64,000 nt of DNA from Raja brachyura (lineage: Eukaryota). Position 1 is the stretch's first letter; every line of letters starts with the position of its first letter. The translations under genes and the position numbers were made by a program. The notes below the pieces were generated by a model that searched no databases, had not been told where the DNA came from, and saw only the letters and a list, made by a program, of their open reading frames with translations. Shown piece after piece: positions 40,030 to 51,080 of the stretch. The DNA is taken from NCBI GenBank assembly GCA_963514005.1, contig OY740796.1, forward strand, positions 20,212,001 to 20,276,000, read 5' to 3'.

Positions 40030-40147
40030 ATCTTTTGTATGCGCACTGATGTAATTTGCAGTTTCCGAATCATCAGCACATTTCGTGAGCCACTTTTTAA
40101 TGGTTGGACAGTCAGTGGGAGCATGGTACATCTGGCGACACTTGAAG
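40030..40147 (-). CDS. ARIH2: ARIH2 exon ([39 protein letters not shown])
   Basis: 118 nt, ttgcag|...|gtaagg; end of IBR plus linker. Confidence 0.96.
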
Positions 40148-40942
40148 CTGCAAGAAAACAAAATCCGGTTAAAACTCAAATAATGTTCCAGATTTAATCA
40201 GTAACAACTTGTATTAAAGTGAAGCATTTCTAATATGTCCTCGAAGGAACATAGGACAGTACAACGCAAGACCCACAATGTCTATGTTGAACATGATGCC
40301 AAGACCAACCCTTATCTGCCTGTACATAATCCATACCCCTCCATTCCCTGCATATCCATAAGCCCCTTAAACATCTCTTAAATGCCATTATCGTATCTGC
40401 CAGCAGGGCATTCCAGGCACTCCCCACCCTTTGTGTAAAAAAAAGTAAGATTAAACGAGAACTTACCAGTTCGAAGGTTGATCTTTATTTTATGAGGAGT
40501 TGCGGTGAGGGATTTCGTGAAGACCCCGCCAACACGCATGCGCGGCATCCTTCAAAGCAGCGGTGTGGAATCACAGACCCGACCAAAAGTAAAGATATTA
40601 AGATTAACCCTTTGAACTAACCAGTTGAACATAATGATCGAGGGTTGGGAGCGGAGGGCACGAAATCCCTCACCGCAACTCCTCATAAAATAAAGATCAA
40701 CCTTCGAACTGGTAAGTTCTCGTTTAATCTTACTATTTTACTTCGGAGTCACGTGAGTGACTTCGTGAAGATTTCAAAGCTCTGTGATTACACGCCCTGG
40801 ACAACGTCCATGCTACCACACTGCCGCAATCCTGATGGAGGAAGTTTGTTAATGCAATCCAGACTGGACAAGCTGAAAGCAAAATAATGGAGATTTATTA
40901 ACACAAATCATAAACAAACCCCCTGGCTGGGAACAAATGACA

Positions 40943-41906
40943 TTAGGGAGCAGCCCTGAGTACTGCATCCGCATATGTTGCAGGTCCGGCCAATGGCTTG
41001 TGGTAAAACCGCTGGAAGGTTGTCTCACTGGCCCATCCTGCTGTAGCGAGGACGTGATCCATGGGCACCTCCATGGCCCTCGCTGTTGATGTGGATGCAG
41101 CCCTGGTGGAATGAGATTTAAAAATGTGAGTGTCAATACCTGCTTCATCCAACACCTCCCTGAACCACCTGGAGATTGTCTGCACTGTCACCCGGTGATG
41201 TGGTTTTTTGTGGCTTATGAGCAGTCCTTGTTCTGAGTTCCTGATTGGCTGGGTTGACTCGATGTAGTAACGGAGGTGGGCGACTGTGCAGAGTGTGGCA
41301 TCAGTGAGGTACGCCTGGAATTCCAATTGCAGCCCCGTAGTCCCGGGTCTATGCTGCTTTAGCAACTCTGCAACGTAAAAAGTTACTTTCCCAGGGGTAG
41401 AGAGCATATTGTCAATGCGCAACTTTTGAAGCGCCTGTACCCGCTGAGCAGATGTGAGTGCCATCAACATGACCACCTTTAGGGTGAGTCGGTGAAGTGG
41501 TAACCCCGCCATGGGAGACCATGATCTTAAAAGGGACAGGACCACTCCTGCATCCCAGACAACGTTATATCTGGGCCGTGGAGGGTTGGTATTAAATACA
41601 CCCCTCATGAATTTTGACACCAGATTGTTGGTCCCCACTCCTACTGGAAGGTACGAGGACAGCGCACTCCTGGCGCTATTGATGGCACTATAGCTGAGCC
41701 CATCATCGTAATGGAGGCCTGCCAGGAATTCCAGGACGTCAGGTATCGTAGCAGAATCATAGGAAACATTGTTCCTTGAGCAGAATAACTCCCATTTCCT
41801 GATCTGGGTCAGGTACTGCCGTCTGGTTAGATGTTCTGCATGATGCAGCGATTACATCCATGGCCCTCGATGAAATCCTGGTGTTTATAAGAGGCCTTTT
41901 CAGAAT
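40943..41906 (-). pseudogene. DIRS ORF3 tyrosine recombinase with a single +1 frameshift near 41828
   Basis: Catalytic residues R (SAQRV), HSTR, AGW and Y (QRFY) present. Removing one A from TCTAACCAGACGG joins ORF 41757..41939 to the downstream frame (...RTSTRRQYLTQIRKWELFC...LSYSAINSARSALS...). Confidence 0.9.
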
Positions 41907-43933
41907 CTGCAGATCAACAGGTTTAGACACCCGTGGCACGGATGCGACGCGCCAGTGACGGGATTAGTGATCAATCGCGGGTTGTTTGCAATTTGCACCC
42001 AAGGATGTTTGAACATCTGGGAGACCACCGGGTACCATGGTTGTGTCGGCCAGTCGGGTATTACCAGAATGCCTGACGCAGAGTCCAATTTGATTTTCTG
42101 CAATACCCGGCTGATGAGGCAGAATGGGGGAAATGCGTAGCAATACCATTTCCCCCAGTGGAGCGAAAAAGCATCCAACGCCACTGCCCCAGGGTCTGGT
42201 TCCCACGATACATACGTTGGTATCTGATGGTTCAACCTAGACGCAAATAGGTCAATATCTGGCATACCAAATTTTGTTACAATATCAGCAAACACATGGG
42301 GATTCAGCATCCACTCGATGTTATCATTGAACACTCGTGACCTGGTGTCCGCCACTGTATTGAGTATCCCCGGGAGGTACGTTGCTGATATCCAAATATC
42401 CCTTTTGATACACCAGAGCCAAATTGTATTTGCCAAATCATTACAAGATACTGACCTGATACCACCCATATGATTTATATATGCTACCACCGTGGTATTG
42501 TCTATTTGAAGGCGGACATGTGCATGACGCAAGTTACAGCAATACGCCCGTAACCTATGAAAACCCCCCAGCATCTCCAGATAATTAATGCCTTGTACTT
42601 GGAGAAGGGTGAACTCATGAGCGTCCCATCTACCACCGCAGCTGGTTATGGTGTCAGTTGCTCCCCAGCCTTGTGCGCTTGCATCAGTTTGCAACAGAAC
42701 TGTTGGATTTGGGAGAAGGATGGGTTTGGAACTTCCTCTTATACCGTGAACCCACCAGTTCAACTCGGCCTTTTCCCCTATGCCCAGTTGCATTGGTCGG
42801 TCAAAATGTCCCGCATTCAATTTTAACGCCAGAATTTTGCTTGTTTGTAATTTCCGGTAGTGTAATGGACCATAATTTACAGCTGGGAACGTAGCTACCA
42901 GCTTCCCAATTACCCTTGCAACCTGCCGAATGGTTGGCCTGTTGCTGTCAAGTAAACTGATGCATGCGTGTTGAATGTCCACCACTTTGTCAATTGGGAC
43001 GGTGACTTTCATCTGGTTAATGTCTATAGTGAACCCCAAATAGTCCATGACCTGCGAAGGGTTGAACTTGGATTTGTCTGGATGGATTAGAAACCCCATC
43101 CTTTGAAACAAAGAGATGGCGGCTGAGACTGCCAGCTGGGCTAGCGCTAGGGTTTCCCCCGCTATGAATATGTCATCTAAATATGCCATAATGATATGGT
43201 TTTGTTTCCTAAGATGTGCCAATATAGGTTTAACAAGTTTGGTAAATAGTCTCGACGCTGTTGTAATCCCATTAGGCAAAGCTTTATATTGCCATAATTG
43301 ACCTTCCCAGACAAATTTCAAGAACCTTCTATGTTGTTTAGCGATAGGCACTGTATAATATGCATCCTTGAGGTCAATGCAAGCCATAAAGTACCCATGA
43401 CTGACCAACTGCTTGGCTGTCTCAAACGTCTCCATTTTGAAATGGGTATATTGTACGAAAGCATTCAACTGGGTTAAGTCGATGATAATCCGACAGCCTC
43501 CATCCTTCTTGGTTCTAGTAAAGATGTTGGATACAAACTCCAATGGCTCATGCGTCGTTTTCTGTATCACCCCTTTTTCTTCCAATCGTAGTATCTCAAC
43601 ATGAGCCCGCTCCTTCTCTAATTGAGAGAGTGCAAATCTGCGACTAGGCTCATGTTGCGAAGGGGGATCCCTGCCATTAATAAACTCTATCTCATAACCC
43701 TGAATGCTTTGTAAAATAAAAGGATCCGTAGTTATGGTATCCCAGGCAGACCGGAATTCCCGTAGCCGACCCCCCACCGGTGAGGTTACTATTGCTACTT
43801 TATGGAAGGAACCAAGCCCCCTTACCTCCAAGGTCAGCGCCGGGGTCTGGACTGTGGTGTTTTTGCTCCCCGTGTGGCATGGCCCTGTTGCCGCATCTTC
43901 CAAGCTGGCTTGGGCTGGCCTTGGAATAAAAAA
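41900..43933 (-). CDS. DIRS ORF2: reverse transcriptase - RNase H - adenine-methyltransferase-like domain (no initiating ATG; -1 frame relative to gag)
   Basis: RT: IDLKDAYY, ALPNG, YLDD, YLG. RNase H: TDAS, INYLE, IDNTT, NTVAD. MT-like: IDLFAS...YAFPPF. No stops; the ORF-track start at 43903 is TTG. Confidence 0.95.
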   Translation of the reverse strand, partial: FFIPRPAQASLEDAATGPCHTGSKNTTVQTPALTLEVRGLGSFHKVAIVTSPVGGRLREFRSAWDTITTDPFILQSIQGYEIEFINGRDPPSQHEPSRRFALSQLEKERAHVEILRLEEKGVIQKTTHEPLEFVSNIFTRTKKDGGCRIIIDLTQLNAFVQYTHFKMETFETAKQLVSHGYFMACIDLKDAYYTVPIAKQHRRFLKFVWEGQLWQYKALPNGITTASRLFTKLVKPILAHLRKQNHIIMAYLDDIFIAGETLALAQLAVSAAISLFQRMGFLIHPDKSKFNPSQVMDYLGFTIDINQMKVTVPIDKVVDIQHACISLLDSNRPTIRQVARVIGKLVATFPAVNYGPLHYRKLQTSKILALKLNAGHFDRPMQLGIGEKAELNWWVHGIRGSSKPILLPNPTVLLQTDASAQGWGATDTITSCGGRWDAHEFTLLQVQGINYLEMLGGFHRLRAYCCNLRHAHVRLQIDNTTVVAYINHMGGIRSVSCNDLANTIWLWCIKRDIWISATYLPGILNTVADTRSRVFNDNIEWMLNPHVFADIVTKFGMPDIDLFASRLNHQIPTYVSWEPDPGAVALDAFSLHWGKWYCYAFPPFCLISRVLQKIKLDSASGILVIPDWPTQPWYPVVSQMFKHPWVQIANNPRLITNPVTGASHPCHGCLNLLICRF

Positions 43934-45618
43934 GGCTTCTGCTGTTGGGGCCCCGGCGTGGAGAATGTTGATTGTGGGTATGTTCTGGGGACCCTGTCTG
44001 CCGGTGTGCGGGACCTGACCGAGGAATGTGGCTGCTGCCTGGTGTAAACGTGAGCCTTAGATGAATGAGGCTGCCTCATCATCCCCACAGTCTTGGCCTC
44101 CTCGTCCAGTTCTTTTACCCGCTTAGGTAGGTCTTCCCCAAACAGCTGCCTTGGTGGTGGTGCGGTGGAGGTGCTGCATAATCCCGCAAATTTGGGATTT
44201 AAATTTGGCCGGATGGAGCTTTTCCTAAAACAGTTTATCTCAAACCGAGTGTTGCACAAGAGCGCTAGTGCATCCTGCTGCTCCTCGGAAACACTCGTGG
44301 CATCCAGAGGCCGAGCGAAAGCCGTGATACCCGCCGTCAGCAGTTTCAGGATCTTCTGGCCCTCCTTGATCCTTGTATTAGTAGACATGTTCCCCCATAT
44401 CGCTGTATTCACCTTAGGAACGTTGAGGGAGTTGCAGTTCGCCGGTGCTTTGTATCTGGCCATTGTTTCCGTGAGCACGGTATCCTGGAGCTGGTGCGTA
44501 GTCAGAAAATCAATCGAAGCCGCTATCTTGGGATGTAATGGGTCCCCAGCGGTAGCAGGCGACCCAAACTTCGAGACTGCCTGCAACATTTCCTGTGGGG
44601 CGTTGAGCTCTCCCTCCTCCTCAGACTCACCCATACTGCCTAGCTGGCTCTCAAGCGATGGTGAGATGGAAGGTGGCGGCTGTGCGTAGCTCCCAGAGCT
44701 CTGGGACTGCCGTTCCTGATGCTCCAGGTCCCGTTTGTAGAGCACCTCCACCATACGCTCCAACCGGGCCATACGACCGTCACCGCTGCACGCGGGCCAC
44801 TGGTCGTCTTCCCCAGCCTCTCCAGAGGAACCGGGGCTTCCGGCAGTTGTCAGCACCCCCACGGAATGCACTGCCAGGAAGTCGCCAGCTCCCGCTCCAG
44901 CGGGGCTGTGCGACTCCCGCACGGACATACCGCTGGTCCGCCGTCGTTTGGACAGCAGCGGCCCCTCTGTCTGGTGGGAGGGAAGAGGGCTTGAGTCAGT
45001 GCTTGTACCAGAAGCCAGACTCCTCGATGTCCGTGCAGGCTTACCACCACAGTGTTCCACACATAAACGGGAATGTGGCGGCGCATGGTCTGTTATACCC
45101 GCCTCAGCAGGAGTGCTAGACCGTACTTTGCTGCCACCGGCCCGCACTACGGCAGCCTGTTCCGGTGGTGTGCCGGTACATCCTGCCCCCACAGGGATCC
45201 TCGGCACGCCAGCATTGCCACTGGTCTGCTTCCTTGCAGGTTTACCCAGTGGCTTGTCAGTGCCTGCCGAACCGACAAGGCTGGACTTTAGCGAGGCTTC
45301 CCCCCTGTTCTGCCCACGAGGGACCTCTAAAGGGGGGGATGCACTCGCAGACACGCTTGCTCCAAGAGCCCCACGTGCCTTACCTCCAGCCCTGGACTTG
45401 GGCACTGGAGGCCTGGAGTCAGGGTCTCCCAGCCCCTGCTCCGGCGCGGACACCCTCTTCTTTGCCAGATGGGTTGTGCCGGGTCTAGTCAGCTGCCCAG
45501 AGCTCCCCGACTTCCGCGACTTCCTCCCCGGTGGTGTCTCAGCTGCTCCCGATGTAGCGGGCAGCTCCGGGGACTGCACTCGCTGAACGCGACTCTTAAT
45601 GCTCCTTCCTCCTTCCAT
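43834..45618 (-). CDS. DIRS ORF1 (gag-like)
   Basis: Long uninterrupted ORF from gccATGG at 45618. Low-complexity N-terminus, then a conserved-looking PANCNSLNVPKVNTAIW...LFGEDL region as in DIRS ORF1 proteins. Confidence 0.85.
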   Translation of the reverse strand: MEGGRSIKSRVQRVQSPELPATSGAAETPPGRKSRKSGSSGQLTRPGTTHLAKKRVSAPEQGLGDPDSRPPVPKSRAGGKARGALGASVSASASPPLEVPRGQNRGEASLKSSLVGSAGTDKPLGKPARKQTSGNAGVPRIPVGAGCTGTPPEQAAVVRAGGSKVRSSTPAEAGITDHAPPHSRLCVEHCGGKPARTSRSLASGTSTDSSPLPSHQTEGPLLSKRRRTSGMSVRESHSPAGAGAGDFLAVHSVGVLTTAGSPGSSGEAGEDDQWPACSGDGRMARLERMVEVLYKRDLEHQERQSQSSGSYAQPPPSISPSLESQLGSMGESEEEGELNAPQEMLQAVSKFGSPATAGDPLHPKIAASIDFLTTHQLQDTVLTETMARYKAPANCNSLNVPKVNTAIWGNMSTNTRIKEGQKILKLLTAGITAFARPLDATSVSEEQQDALALLCNTRFEINCFRKSSIRPNLNPKFAGLCSTSTAPPPRQLFGEDLPKRVKELDEEAKTVGMMRQPHSSKAHVYTRQQPHSSVRSRTPADRVPRTYPQSTFSTPGPQQQKPFLFQGQPKPAWKMRQQGHATRGAKTPQSRPRR

Positions 45619-45814
45619 GGCCCTGCAAACAATACAGAGCACACGAACCAGCTAAAGGTTAACTTACCTGCAGCTGCTTACCTTTTTGAAGGAGCCGGTT
45701 GAGGGAACGCACTCCCCCCACCAGCTGCCGTGAGCAAATGCGCGCGACGATATGTCGCGCATGCGTGTTGGCGGGGTCTTCACGAAGTCACTCACGTGAC
45801 TCCGAAGTAAAATA

Positions 45815-47175
45815 TATAATTTGCCCCGCACATCTCCTTTAAACTTAGTCTCTCTCACCTTACATTTATACCCTCTACAGATTAATGTTTCCATTCTGTG
45901 AAAAAAAGGTTCTAACTGTCTACACTATCTATGTCTCCCAATTTTACATACTTCTATTGGTCTCCCCACAACCTCCAGCATTCTAGGGAAAAAAACCCAG
46001 GTCTGTCCAATACCCCGACCATCATTCCAGTAATTTGGAACTTCTGCACATTTCTAAAGCCTCCAAATTTTTCCTGTAATGGTGCGACCAGAACTGTGAA
46101 CAATACTCCAAATGCAGCCTAACCAAAGGCCTTTATAGCTGTATCATGACTTCCTCTTACAATCAATGTCTCGACTTCTGAAAGCAAGCATACCATTTGC
46201 CCTCTTTATCACTCTATCTACTTACGTTGCCACTTGCACAGAGTTATGGACTTGGATCCCACAATCCCTCTGTACATCAATGCTGTTATAGTCATGTCAT
46301 TAATTGTACATTTTCCCCTTGCATTTGATTCCCAAAGTACACCTCACGCTTGGATTAAACTCCATCTGCCATTTCTCCACCCATTTCAGTAGCTGATCTA
46401 TGTCCTACTGCATACTTTGGCAGCCTTCCTCACAGTTCGCAACCCTAGCAATCTTGGTGTCATCTGCAAACTTACTAATGAACCTGTCTTTGTTTGCGTC
46501 CAACTCATTTATATATATCACAAACAGCAGAGATCCCAGTACAGAAGCTGCGGAACTCCACTGGTCACAGATCTCCAGCCTGAATATCGTCCTTCCACCA
46601 CAACCCCATCTTCTAACCATAAGCCAGTTATGGATCCACACAACCAAGTCACTGTTAACCCTGTGCATCTTAATCTTCCAGATCAGCCTACCATGGGGGA
46701 TTTTATCAAAAGCTTTAGAAAAATTCCATGTAGATAACATTCACTGCCCTACCTCATCACCTTTGTCACCTCCTCAAAAAACTCGATCAAGTTAGTAAGA
46801 CACAACCTGTCGTGTGCAAAGTGACGCTGACTGACTGTGCCTAATTAACCTATTCTTCCAAATGGGAGTAAATCCTGTCCTGAAAAATGGTCTACAATAG
46901 CATCCCTACCATTAACACAAAGCGCACAGGCTTATAATTCCGTGGATCCTGCCTACTTCCCTCCTTAAATAAACGAACAACATTAGCTACTCTCCAGTCC
47001 TCGGAACCCCGTCTGTGGCTTGAGAAAGCAAGGATCTTTGTTAAGGCTCCTGCAAACTCCTTTCTTGCCCCTCTCAATAACCTGGAATAGATCCCATGAG
47101 GTCCTGGGGGGTTATCCATTTTAATGCTCCTCAGGAGCTCAAAACACTGCCTTCTCAAACTTCCCTTGCATATTA
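45815..47175 (-). mobile_element. CR1 (HER1-like) LINE fragment; its 3' tail continues at 40230-40443 beyond the DIRS insertion
   Basis: NYKPV, FSKAFDKIPHGRL, SVLGSLLFVIYINELD, SKFADDTKI; tail SAWNAL... Confidence 0.9.
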
Positions 47176-47573
47176 GCTTTTTTTCAAAGAATCCATTTCA
47201 CGTCTTAATCAAGTCCAAAAAACCAAACTGATGTGAGTTACTGTGGAGGTGATATTCTACAGATGCAACGCTAAAATGCTAAACAATTATTCCACTCGCT
47301 TACCGTAATGATTCAGATGTAAATTATAGAGCACAATGCATTATTCAAACCAGGGCAGAGATCTGTGATGCCATCTGTACAATTGCCTTTTTGGTTAATT
47401 CATAATACTGATATACGTCATGTATTTCTTATTCTTGTGCGTGACGAATTGCACTGTCCAAAATAGCTGCCAAGTACACCCACGGTAACTATATTTAAAA
47501 ACCAATTTAATGTACATAGAGATTGGATAGATATGATGCAATGTGATAAACCAGTGTCAAAGCAAATACGTTA

Positions 47574-47788
47574 TGCCCCTGTCCCACTTAGGAAACCTGA
47601 AGGGAAGCTTCTGGAGTCTTTGCGCCCCACCCAATGTTTCTGTGCAGTTCCTGGAGGTTTTTGTCAGTCTCCCTAATGGTCAAAAGTGGTTTCCGCTTCT
47701 TCAATGATCCGGCGATTATTTCAAAAAATTGAAAAAACCTCCGGGAACCTGACAAAAACCTCCGGGTTTCCTAAGTGGGACAGGGGCA
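47574..47788. mobile_element. PIF/Harbinger-type MITE
   Basis: Perfect 24-bp TIRs TGCCCCTGTCCCACTTAGGAAACC; TTA TSD. Confidence 0.88.
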
Positions 47789-47791
47789 TTA

Positions 47792-48671
47792 CATAGAATG
47801 TAGGACAGTGCAGCATAGGAACAAGCCCCATGGCCCACAATGTATGTGCTGAACATGTTCCTAAAGTACACCAATCCCTTCTGCCCGAATTATTCATTCT
47901 CTTTCATTCCCTGCATATTTACGTACCTATCCAACAGCCTCTTTAACTACTGTATCTGCTTCCACCACAACCCCTGGCATCACATTTCAAGCCCTAACAC
48001 TCTCCGGGTAAAAATAACTTGCTCTCTACATCCTCTTTAAACTACCCCTCTCACAATAAAGTTATGCCCTTTCATATTTGAAATTTCCACCCTGGGAAAA
48101 ATATTCTGACAGTCTAGCCTATCTGTGCCTTATAATTTAATAAACTGTGTCTAGCCTACCTATATAGCTAATACTCTAATGAAGGCAACATCCTGGTAAA
48201 CTTCTTCTGCACCCTCTCCAAAGCCTCCATGCCCCTCCTATAATGGAATACAACCAGAACTTCATACAATATGCGGCCCAACTAAGGTTCTACAAAGCTG
48301 CAGCATAACTTCCTGACTCTTATACGCAATGCCCCAATCGATAAATGCAAGCATATAATTTGACTTCTTTCCCACTAACTCCTCCTGTTGCTGCTTTCCA
48401 AGACTTATGGACCCCAAGAATTCTCTGAACATCATTGCTGTTGAGGGCAATACCATAAATTGTATTAATTCCCTCTACATTTGACCTTCCAACATGCAAT
48501 ACCTCACACATTCCAGGTTTAAACTCCATATGCCATTTCTCCACCCACATCCGTACCTAATTTATACTATTATATCTCCAATGGCATCTTCACAGTCCGT
48601 AACTTCGCCAATTTTTGTACCGTCTACAAACTTACTAACCAATCCGTCTACATTTTCGTCTTTTATATATA
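47792..48671 (-). mobile_element. CR1 LINE 3' fragment (continues at ~51081-51210 beyond the Tc1)
   Basis: SKFVDGTKIG, WHMEFKPGMCEVLH, YKSQEVMLQLCRTLV motifs. Confidence 0.88.
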
Positions 48672-51080
48672 CAGTGCCCTCCATAATGTTCGGGACAAAG
48701 ACCCACCATTTATTTATTTGCATCTGTACTTCACTTGAGATTTGTAATAGAAAAAAATCACATGTGGTTAAAGTGCACATTGTCAGTTTTTAATAAAGGC
48801 CATTTTTATACATTTTGGTTTCACATGTAGAAATTACAGCAGTGTTGATACATAGTCTCCCCATTTCATGGCACCATAATGTTTGGGACACAGCAATGTC
48901 ATGTAAATGAAATTAGTCATGTTAGTATTTTGTTGCATATCCTTTGCATGCAATGACTGCCTGAAGTCTGCGATTCATGGACATCACCAGTTGCTGGGTG
49001 TCTTCTCTGGTGATGCTCTGCCAGGCCTGTATTGCAGCCATCTTTAGCTTATGCTAGTTTTAAGGGTGGTTAGACCCCTTCAGTTTTCCCCTCGGCATAT
49101 AAAAGGCATGCTCAATTGGGTTCAGATCGGGTGATTGACTTGGCCACTCAAAAATTGACCATTCTTTAGCTTTGAAAAACTCCTTTGGTGCTTTAGCTGT
49201 ATGTTTGGGATCATTGGCTTGCTGTAGAATGAACCGCCGGCCAATGAGTTGAGGCATTTGTTTGTACTTGAGCAGATAGGTTGTGTCTATACACATCAGA
49301 ATTCATTATGCTACTACCATCAGCAGTTGTATCATCAATGAAGATAAGTGGGCCAGTACTTTCGGCAGCCATACATGCCCAGGCAATAACTCCCCTACCA
49401 CCGTGTTTCACAGATGAGGTGGTATGCTTTGGATTTTGGGCAGTTCTTTCTCTCCTCCATAATTTGCTCTTCACCATCATTCTGCTATGTTAATCTTCAA
49501 GTTCACGTTTATGGTTATTGTCACTTAACCAACTAAGGTAGAGAAATTTGAGTTACCATACAGCATACTAAGTGAAAAGCAATAGTACACAAAGCCACAT
49601 AAAACTAAAATTTAACATAAACATCCACCACAGTGGAATCAACATTCCTCACTGTGATGGAAGGCAATAAAGTTCAGTCATCTTCCTGTTTGCTCACCCA
49701 ACGTCGGGGCATTTGAACCCTCTGCACTTGCCGCTGCAGACGGTCCGCTGTTCAAGCCCTCTCATCGGGATAATCGAAACTCCAGTGTCGGAATGGATTG
49801 GAACACTCCGCGGCATGAGGCTCCCGAGTCGGCCGCTTCTTACTGGAGACCGCGGCTTCACGGTGTTAAAGTCCACAGGCGCTGCGGTTGGAGCTCCGCT
49901 GGCGACCCGCAGCAAAGGATCGCAGCTCCCGATGTTAAAGTCTGTGCCGCGCCCATGGCTTGAATCTCCGGGCCGGTCTCCAGGAAAGGCCGCACCACTC
50001 CACATTGTAGGTCGCAGGGGAGGACGGAGATGCGACATGGAGGGAAATTATTATTTTTTAAATGGCATCTCTGTTGAGGTAAATGGCTGAACAAAATTTC
50101 TCCCGATTCTCTCCCCTCCCCCCCCCCCCCCCCCCCCACATGAAACAAATCAAGAAACACTAAATCATACTTTTAAAACATACTTTAAATAATAAAAACA
50201 GAGTGGGGACTGACAGACTGTTGGCTAGGCAGCCACCACGGTGGTGCCGCCCGATGGACATATCTTTGTCTCATCTGTCCACAAAGCATTTTTCCAAAAC
50301 TGTGATTGCTCTTTTAAGTACTTCTTGGCAAACGGTAGCCTGGCCATCCGATTTTTGCGGCTAACCAGTGGTTTGCCTCTTGCAGTGTAGCCTCTGTATT
50401 TCTGTTCATGAAGTCTTCTGCAGACAGTGGTCATTGACAAATCCACACCGGACTCCTGAAGAGTGTTTCTGATCTGTCGAACAGGTGTTGGGGATTTTTC
50501 TTTATTACACAGAGAATTATTCTGTCATCAGCAGGTCATCCTTGGCCTGCCAGTCCCTTTGCGATTAGTAAGCTCACCAGTGCTTTCTTTCTTCTTAATG
50601 ATGTTCCAAACAGTTGATTTTGGTAAGCCTAAGGTTTGGCTGATGTCTCTAACAGTTTTCTTCTTGTTTCTCAGTCTCATAATGACTTCTTTGACTATCA
50701 TTGGCACAACTTTGGTCCTCATGTTGATAAACAGCAATAAAAGTTTTTAAAGGTGATGGAAAGACTGGAGGAAAGGCTAGGTGCTGAGAGCTCTCTTATA
50801 CCTGCATTAAGGAGGCAATTAAACATACCTGTGCAATTACAAACTCCTGTGAAGCCATGTGTCCCAAACATTATGGTGCCATGAAATGGGGGGGTGCTAT
50901 GTATAAATTGAGCTGTAATTTATACAAGGTGAAACCAAATGTATAAATTGCCTTTATTAAAATCTGACAATGTGCACTTTAACCAGATGTGTTTTTTTCT
51001 ATTAAAAATCTCAAATTGTGGAGTACAGAGGCAAATAAATAAATGATGGGTCTTTGTCCCAAACATTATGGAGGGCACTA
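48672..51080 (-). mobile_element. Second copy of the same Tc1 family, interrupted by a 764-bp insertion and itself inserted in a CR1 fragment
   Basis: Same TIRs with TA at the left flank. Transposase pieces in ORFs 50528..50737 (paired-type HTH), 50225..50446 (WTDETK) and 49060..49480 ([12 protein letters not shown]). Confidence 0.95.
49498..50261 (-). mobile_element. GC-rich ~760-bp non-coding insertion (family X, copy 1) inside the Tc1 transposase
   Basis: Flanked by ATCTT / ATCTT; shares sequence blocks with 52044-52791. Confidence 0.7.

Follow-up and report, generated by a model that had tools for sequence, protein, structure and literature searches.

The family to which a DIRS1-like retrotransposon of Raja brachyura belongs very probably makes three products from the gag start, namely Gag, Gag-Pol and a Gag-linker-recombinase fusion, by means of a predicted −1 frameshift at the end of gag and a predicted splice removing pol. 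The element is full-length and occupies the minus strand from approximately 45814 to 40439 of the 64,000-nt stretch of contig OY740796.1 analysed here (the window). Expression of Gag, Gag-Pol and Gag-YR from one start codon via frameshift and intron had been suggested in the initial annotation for this very element; the suggestion is supported for the family by signal conservation and RefSeq gene models, but applies only in part to the copy in the window, the tyrosine recombinase (YR) gene of which is broken.

Three coding regions follow each other on the minus strand. The gag-like ORF1 (43834..45618, 594 aa) is the sole long ORF with an ATG start; it matches no Pfam family, and its tblastn matches lie directly upstream of pol in most relatives. 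The pol ORF (41900..43933; RT, RNase H and a methyltransferase-like region; RVT_1 E 4e-18) has no upstream ATG, its frame being open over 44056..41900 and −1 relative to gag. The annotated absence of an initiating ATG was thus borne out: the first pol Met (43435) lies approximately 70 residues past the start of RT homology at residue ~60. For RNase H no Pfam match was obtained in the window's pol, which carries the TDAS motif, while homologues carry PF17917; the methyltransferase-like region likewise has no Pfam match in the window, its DLFAS...YAFPP motifs being read from the translation, and homologues spanning 92% of the pol query carry PF05869 or PF12237. The YR coding region (40943..41906; Phage_integrase E 5.6e-8), for which a homologue was found in Leucoraja, is frame-broken near 41827. 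Neither an integrase nor a protease family was recognized by Pfam among the three ORFs.

The left inverted terminal repeat (45752..45814, minus strand) forms inverted matches with 40505-40548 (93%) and with part of the internal region, 40734-40771 (100%), and inverted-repeat comparison delimits the right terminal repeat with the right extension (40439..40548, minus strand). The terminal repeats pair over 44 nt with 93% complementarity, and the internal complementary region (40659..40771, minus strand) pairs with both outer ends, over 81 nt at 99% and 38 nt at 100%. By these sequence features the element is assigned to the DIRS1-like group, with a methyltransferase domain recognizable from motif and homology only. 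It shares inverted ends, an internal complementary region, the order gag / RT-RH-MT / YR and the short pol-YR overlap with DIRS1-like elements as they appear in the available text of PMC3266345 and PMC7192593. The internal region points to a circular junction AAT and to termini ATT (40441-40444 and 40734-40740, minus strand), an expectation from which the window's copy departs by one base at its right end. The insertion resides in an ARIH2 intron in sense orientation, upstream of a host exon (40030-40147, minus strand; 37/39 residues identical to ARIH2), and an element with strong splice sites in such a place could disturb host splicing. Its 5′ flank (45816-48720, minus strand) holds decayed LINE-like RT fragments, presumably CR1-like, as a pair of diverged copies separated by about 2,160 nt.

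Three signals connect these genes. The slippery heptamer T TTT TTA (43927..43933, minus strand) stands in gag phase and is the predicted −1 frameshift site, so that both the −1 relation of pol to gag and the in-phase heptamer given in the initial annotation stand. From it a −1-frame linker of 36 codons (43826..43933, minus strand; 11-62 codons in relatives), predicted to be common to Gag-Pol and Gag-YR, extends to the splice donor GAG|GTAAGG (43820..43828, minus strand; cut 43826/43825), which is located 8 nt past the gag stop and, as had been proposed, is in phase 0 of the pol frame. The acceptor ...ctgcag|ATT (41904..41925, minus strand; cut 41907/41906), designated site B, falls at the C-R codons of pol in phase 0 of the homologous YR frame. 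Together they delimit a predicted intron of 1,919 nt (41907..43825, minus strand; 1,646-1,952 nt in relatives) removing almost all of pol. The element contains 14 strict heptamers, 9 of them in gag phase; its donor fits 7/9 consensus positions and is outscored by 6 of the 286 GT sites; and the acceptor is ordinary by pyrimidine count (rank 44 among 178 YAG sites). Within a single element of 5.4 kb none of the three signals exceeds chance, and the case therefore rests on conservation in relatives. The check recommended along with the initial proposal, i.e. conservation of the signals at matched phase in related families, gave a positive outcome for all three, each assessed against controls.

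The relatives comprise 92 loci with 33-52% pol identity to the window; no relative was found among the viral contigs searched. Twelve prokaryote genome assemblies (L081-L092) contain DIRS elements, probably as contamination from animal hosts. For the analysis of the gag end 28 of the 92 loci were set aside: 11 lacked a long ORF terminating close to RT, 10 were truncated, 4 had a pol frame extending far upstream, and 3 were too short. Among the 64 assessable loci, 62 have pol in the −1 frame of the preceding ORF, and YR is −1 to pol in 82/83. The 62 loci and the window fell into 41 clusters, and statistics were calculated on 39 of them, without the window and the damaged L067; since these families are kin, their counts do not represent independent events.

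For the slip site, a strict X XXY YYZ heptamer was required in gag phase within the last 201 nt of gag. It is present in 35/39 families; counts for the other two phases are 8 and 3, those for windows further upstream in gag are 5/37 and 7/37, and synonymous recoding yields a mean of 14.3 with a maximum of 22 over 500 runs; a narrower heptamer set, picked after seeing the data, gives 33/39. Heptamer types are TTTTTTA (19), AAAAAAC (9), TTTTTTG (4) and TTTTTTT (1), the first two being textbook retroviral slip sites (U UUU UUA of HIV-1 and A AAA AAC of MMTV). The −1 frame is open from the slip site to RT in 37/39 families, and ATG is absent ahead of RT in 23/39; as exceptions, L020 has no slip site and L045 has a closed frame. 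An in-phase X XXY YYZ heptamer with an open −1 frame behind it is what qualifies this position as a predicted −1 frameshift site.

The same U-rich tract could be read as a splice acceptor (TTTTTTAG|G) rather than a slip site, in which case pol would be reached by splicing from upstream. A G does follow 14 of the 19 TTTTTTA sites in relatives, and strong donors lie upstream of gag in the window (45681 and 45667), yet the window and five relatives have no AG there, and at the same phase and place 4 families carry TTTTTTG and 9 carry AAAAAAC, which is the gag-pro slip site of MMTV and cannot be an acceptor. Moreover, an exon upstream of gag would provide no start codon in most families, and upstream donors are few, making this reading barely credible. 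The two window donors, together with an acceptor at 45623 immediately ahead of the ATG of gag (45623-45681, minus strand), suggest a short 5′ UTR intron; it is no general feature, 2/24 relatives having strong donors in the 400 nt that precede the ATG.

In the window the region after the heptamer folds no better than shuffled sequences (z 0.28, 0.64 and −0.39). The TTCCAAG/CTTGGAA hairpin, initially annotated as a possible stimulator, was discarded on inspection, for it follows the heptamer with no spacer and is absent from the predicted fold. Among relatives, pseudoknot-free folds give a good stem 5-10 nt downstream in 15/35 vs 15% of controls, with a mean fold z of −0.96 vs −0.25. Occurrence of the stem in only 15/35 relatives indicates that the stimulator is heterogeneous or absent.

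The donor was scored as a GT between the gag stop and RT, in phase 0, with at least 7/9 consensus matches. Such a strong donor follows the gag stop in 36/39 families (6 in phase 1, 0 in phase 2), compared with 2.7% of 1,015 pol windows and with a synonymous-recoding mean of 7.4 (maximum 14), and in 36/36 families possessing it the distance from the gag stop is 2-41 nt. L015, L046 and L080 are exceptions with a weak or off-phase donor. L088, L090 and L091 serve as negative controls: their YR frame extends over the whole of pol, and they lack both a strong donor and the acceptor AG.

In most families the main acceptor (site A) lies within the YAFPPF-S motif of pol, in phase 0 and where the YR frame opens. 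The serine after PPF is encoded by AGY in 34/36 families, while AGY reaches at most 11/50 in 18 other serine columns and 25% overall. The motif was located in 55 of 57 clusters, and in 33 of these 55 the YR frame is open from the PPF-S site; the stop bounding this frame is a pyrimidine-preceded TAG in 18/53 families vs 121/2,168 other stops of the same frame. The clade of the window has PPF-C instead, without AG there, and carries TGC AG at the C-R codons of pol (site B; TGC AGR) in 7/7 relatives, which form one clade with the window (support 98 on a quick tree). The two sites exclude each other: site A only occurs in 32, site B only in 7, both in 2 and neither in 9 (Fisher p 0.003, a value confounded by kinship). 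Of the nine families with neither, three are the long-overlap elements also lacking the donor and six have another phase-0 YAG, situated exactly at the opening of the YR frame in L024, L035, L036 and L048; in L089 no acceptor was found. Slip site, donor and acceptor are all present in 31/36 relatives under an acceptor rule picked after seeing the data. Conservation of donor and acceptor at matched phase thus points to a predicted GT-AG intron.

Might all three signals be side effects of the encoded protein motifs (F-L of Gag, E-V-S of the linker, PPF-S and C-R of pol), with pol and YR expressed otherwise, for instance through a second frameshift in the pol/YR overlap? Such a route would agree with the −1 relation of YR to pol in 82/83 loci and has a precedent in the frameshift proposed for the Ngaro YR, as quoted in the available text of PMC13003380. 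However, synonymous recoding preserves the proteins and falls short of the observed counts, the AGY serine is specific to one column, the acceptor shifts between sites with its phase kept, and the window has no slip site in pol phase after 42566, which renders this explanation highly improbable.

The frameshift and the splice would act together as follows. Normal reading of unspliced RNA would give Gag, and −1 slippage would give Gag-RT-RH-MT; RNA devoid of the 1.9-kb pol intron would give the same Gag, and the same slippage on it would produce Gag-linker-YR. We infer in this way slippage of ribosomes, removal of the intron by the host and formation of fusion proteins. Location of the donor 2-41 nt past the gag stop implies that both RNAs encode the same Gag. 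A stop codon within ~50 nt of an exon junction escapes junction-dependent decay, and the gag stop would fall inside this zone. The short distance from gag stop to donor (36/36) possibly reflects selection to avoid nonsense-mediated decay. No protease domain having been recognized, RT and YR would remain attached to Gag.

An unlikely variant of the scheme retains the intron and has YR translation begin at an ATG past the acceptor, through reinitiation or internal initiation, leaving the frameshift to serve pol only. It draws on GCC ATG G about 43 nt past the acceptor of the window, on a YR-frame ATG near codon −27 in many site-A families and on ATG-started YR ORFs predicted by gene callers. Nevertheless, the Met of the window is not kept at its column in seven relatives of the clade, L048 has no ATG in the stretch between acceptor and YR, and the YR frame is kept open for ~70 codons from the acceptor ahead of those ATGs; besides, matching of donor phase 0 (36/39; phase 2 in 0/39) with acceptor phase 0 would not be needed under internal initiation. 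The fusion of YR to the Gag-linked −1-frame peptide is thus retained here as the preferred reading.

For the window's own copy the third product would be available only in truncated form. The acceptor is located where the initial annotation had put it, but the frame starting with ILKRPL does not run through into the YR domain: it stops after 49 codons, and YR homology lies in another frame. The window's copy cannot make the recombinase fusion because its YR gene is frame-broken near 41827, and it would give Gag and Gag-Pol. Relative to the window, contigs of all four sequencing runs compared have a 1-nt indel at 41827, which assigns the break to this copy. Other copies also have small in-frame insertions in gag at 44358 and 44151 relative to the window.

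Four RefSeq gene models, all from echinoderms (XP_072032829.1, XP_072043497.1, XP_071483612.1 and XP_071502116.1), independently connect a −1-frame linker with YR, and do so at the homologous place. The two Amphiura models contain the join KPAE|IVRRSL, aligning with the predicted donor and acceptor of L002 (linker score 87, above all 1,000 shuffles); the two Diadema models have PKE|VLKLPF at the corresponding position of YR. Within each pair the route from gag to the linker differs and the linker-YR join agrees. A small gag intron seems to have been introduced by the models in order to reach the −1 frame, the gag-to-linker join being seemingly an annotation workaround for the frameshift. Among the best 120 of 1,287 YR-profile matches no spliced protein came from transcript assemblies, and the only gag/linker N-terminus belonged to a RefSeq model (P0135). 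In one sequencing run, X1, which is RNA by presumption, one contig joins 43824 to 41824, the joint being absent from the other three runs. The contig was aligned at 80% likeness and its short side is 28 nt, the far end lies 82 nt past the acceptor with the intervening letters unaccounted for, and six other X1 joints occur at unrelated places; the joint is weakly consistent with a splice.

Some lineages hold gag and pol in one frame (L043, L072 and L084; P0071, P0078, P0096, P0120, P0256, P0257, P0258 and P0261). In one such clade the otherwise variable gag-pol junction keeps G-E-V-S in 7/7 proteins (P0071, P0078, P0096, P0256, P0257, P0258 and P0261), and L043 (GAG|GTAAGC, at the CDS level) and L072 have phase-0 donors at the junction; L084 and P0120 have no donor there, and L084 has no strong donor nearby either. 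Retention of G-E-V-S, i.e. of the donor, implies that splicing alone would give Gag-YR in these elements. Four of 150 gag matches examined for a Gag-YR protein of a one-frame family were all Gag-Pol, and the 845-aa P0257 is a truncated Gag-Pol. On the quick tree loss of the frameshift takes at least two changes, a single origin being still conceivable.

Taken across animals, short-overlap DIRS1-like elements probably share a plan not described in the literature covered. It combines a single start codon with one −1 frameshift, replaced in some lineages by a gag-pol in one frame, and with one intron that removes pol; the acceptor of this intron is written into YAFPPF-S and has been moved in phase in several lineages. 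According to this plan, RT and recombinase would be Gag fusions translated from separate RNAs in proportions governed by splicing and slippage; one gene would need splicing and frameshifting together; and the actual N-terminus of YR would have to be redefined, which matters for both biochemistry and annotation. The relatives also supply a large natural set of predicted animal frameshift sites.

In the available text of the surveyed papers expression of DIRS pol and YR is not addressed, and exact testable sites are now given for both. As far as that text extends, PMC3266345 gives no expression mechanism for DIRS1-like elements and PMC9210276 mentions neither frameshifting nor splicing. Likewise, neither gag-pol frameshifting nor a pol intron is reported for DIRS1-like elements in the parts available of PMC6681497, PMC7192593, PMC5633606, PMC9341512, PMC3266345 and PMC4495291, nor in those of PMC13003380, PMC9210276, PMC4157794, PMC3783388 and PMC1965478. 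No published account of the combined scheme was found within this coverage, to which Goodwin and Poulter 2001, Poulter and Goodwin 2005, Poulter and Butler 2015 and Repbase do not belong.

The closest counterpart among YR elements is Ngaro, for the YR of which a frameshift was proposed by Poulter and Butler 2015, as quoted in PMC13003380. According to the available part of this source, the likeness comprises YR in the −1 frame to pol, a short overlap and proposed recoding, but Ngaro is another superfamily and its shift leads from pol to YR, whereas here the shift leads from gag to pol and YR is reached via splicing. Elements of the D. discoideum type with a long pol/YR overlap (L088, L090 and L091) seem not to need an intron. 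Retroviruses and LTR elements are known to use frameshifting as well as splicing that removes pol. With retroviral gag-pol frameshifting the DIRS family shares the heptamers, their phase, their place at the gag end and a −1 pol without ATG, although no conserved stimulatory structure or protease domain was found in it, and its slip site would in addition serve a third gene, carried by the spliced RNA. The env RNA of retroviruses and the gag RNA of copia, with pol removed, are spliced subgenomic RNAs, and the likeness to them consists in a large intron removing pol and in two RNAs from one promoter. The DIRS donor, unlike theirs, lies past the gag stop and in the −1 frame, and the gene reached encodes the integrating enzyme; it is this placement of the donor that would make the downstream gene dependent on both splicing and frameshifting.
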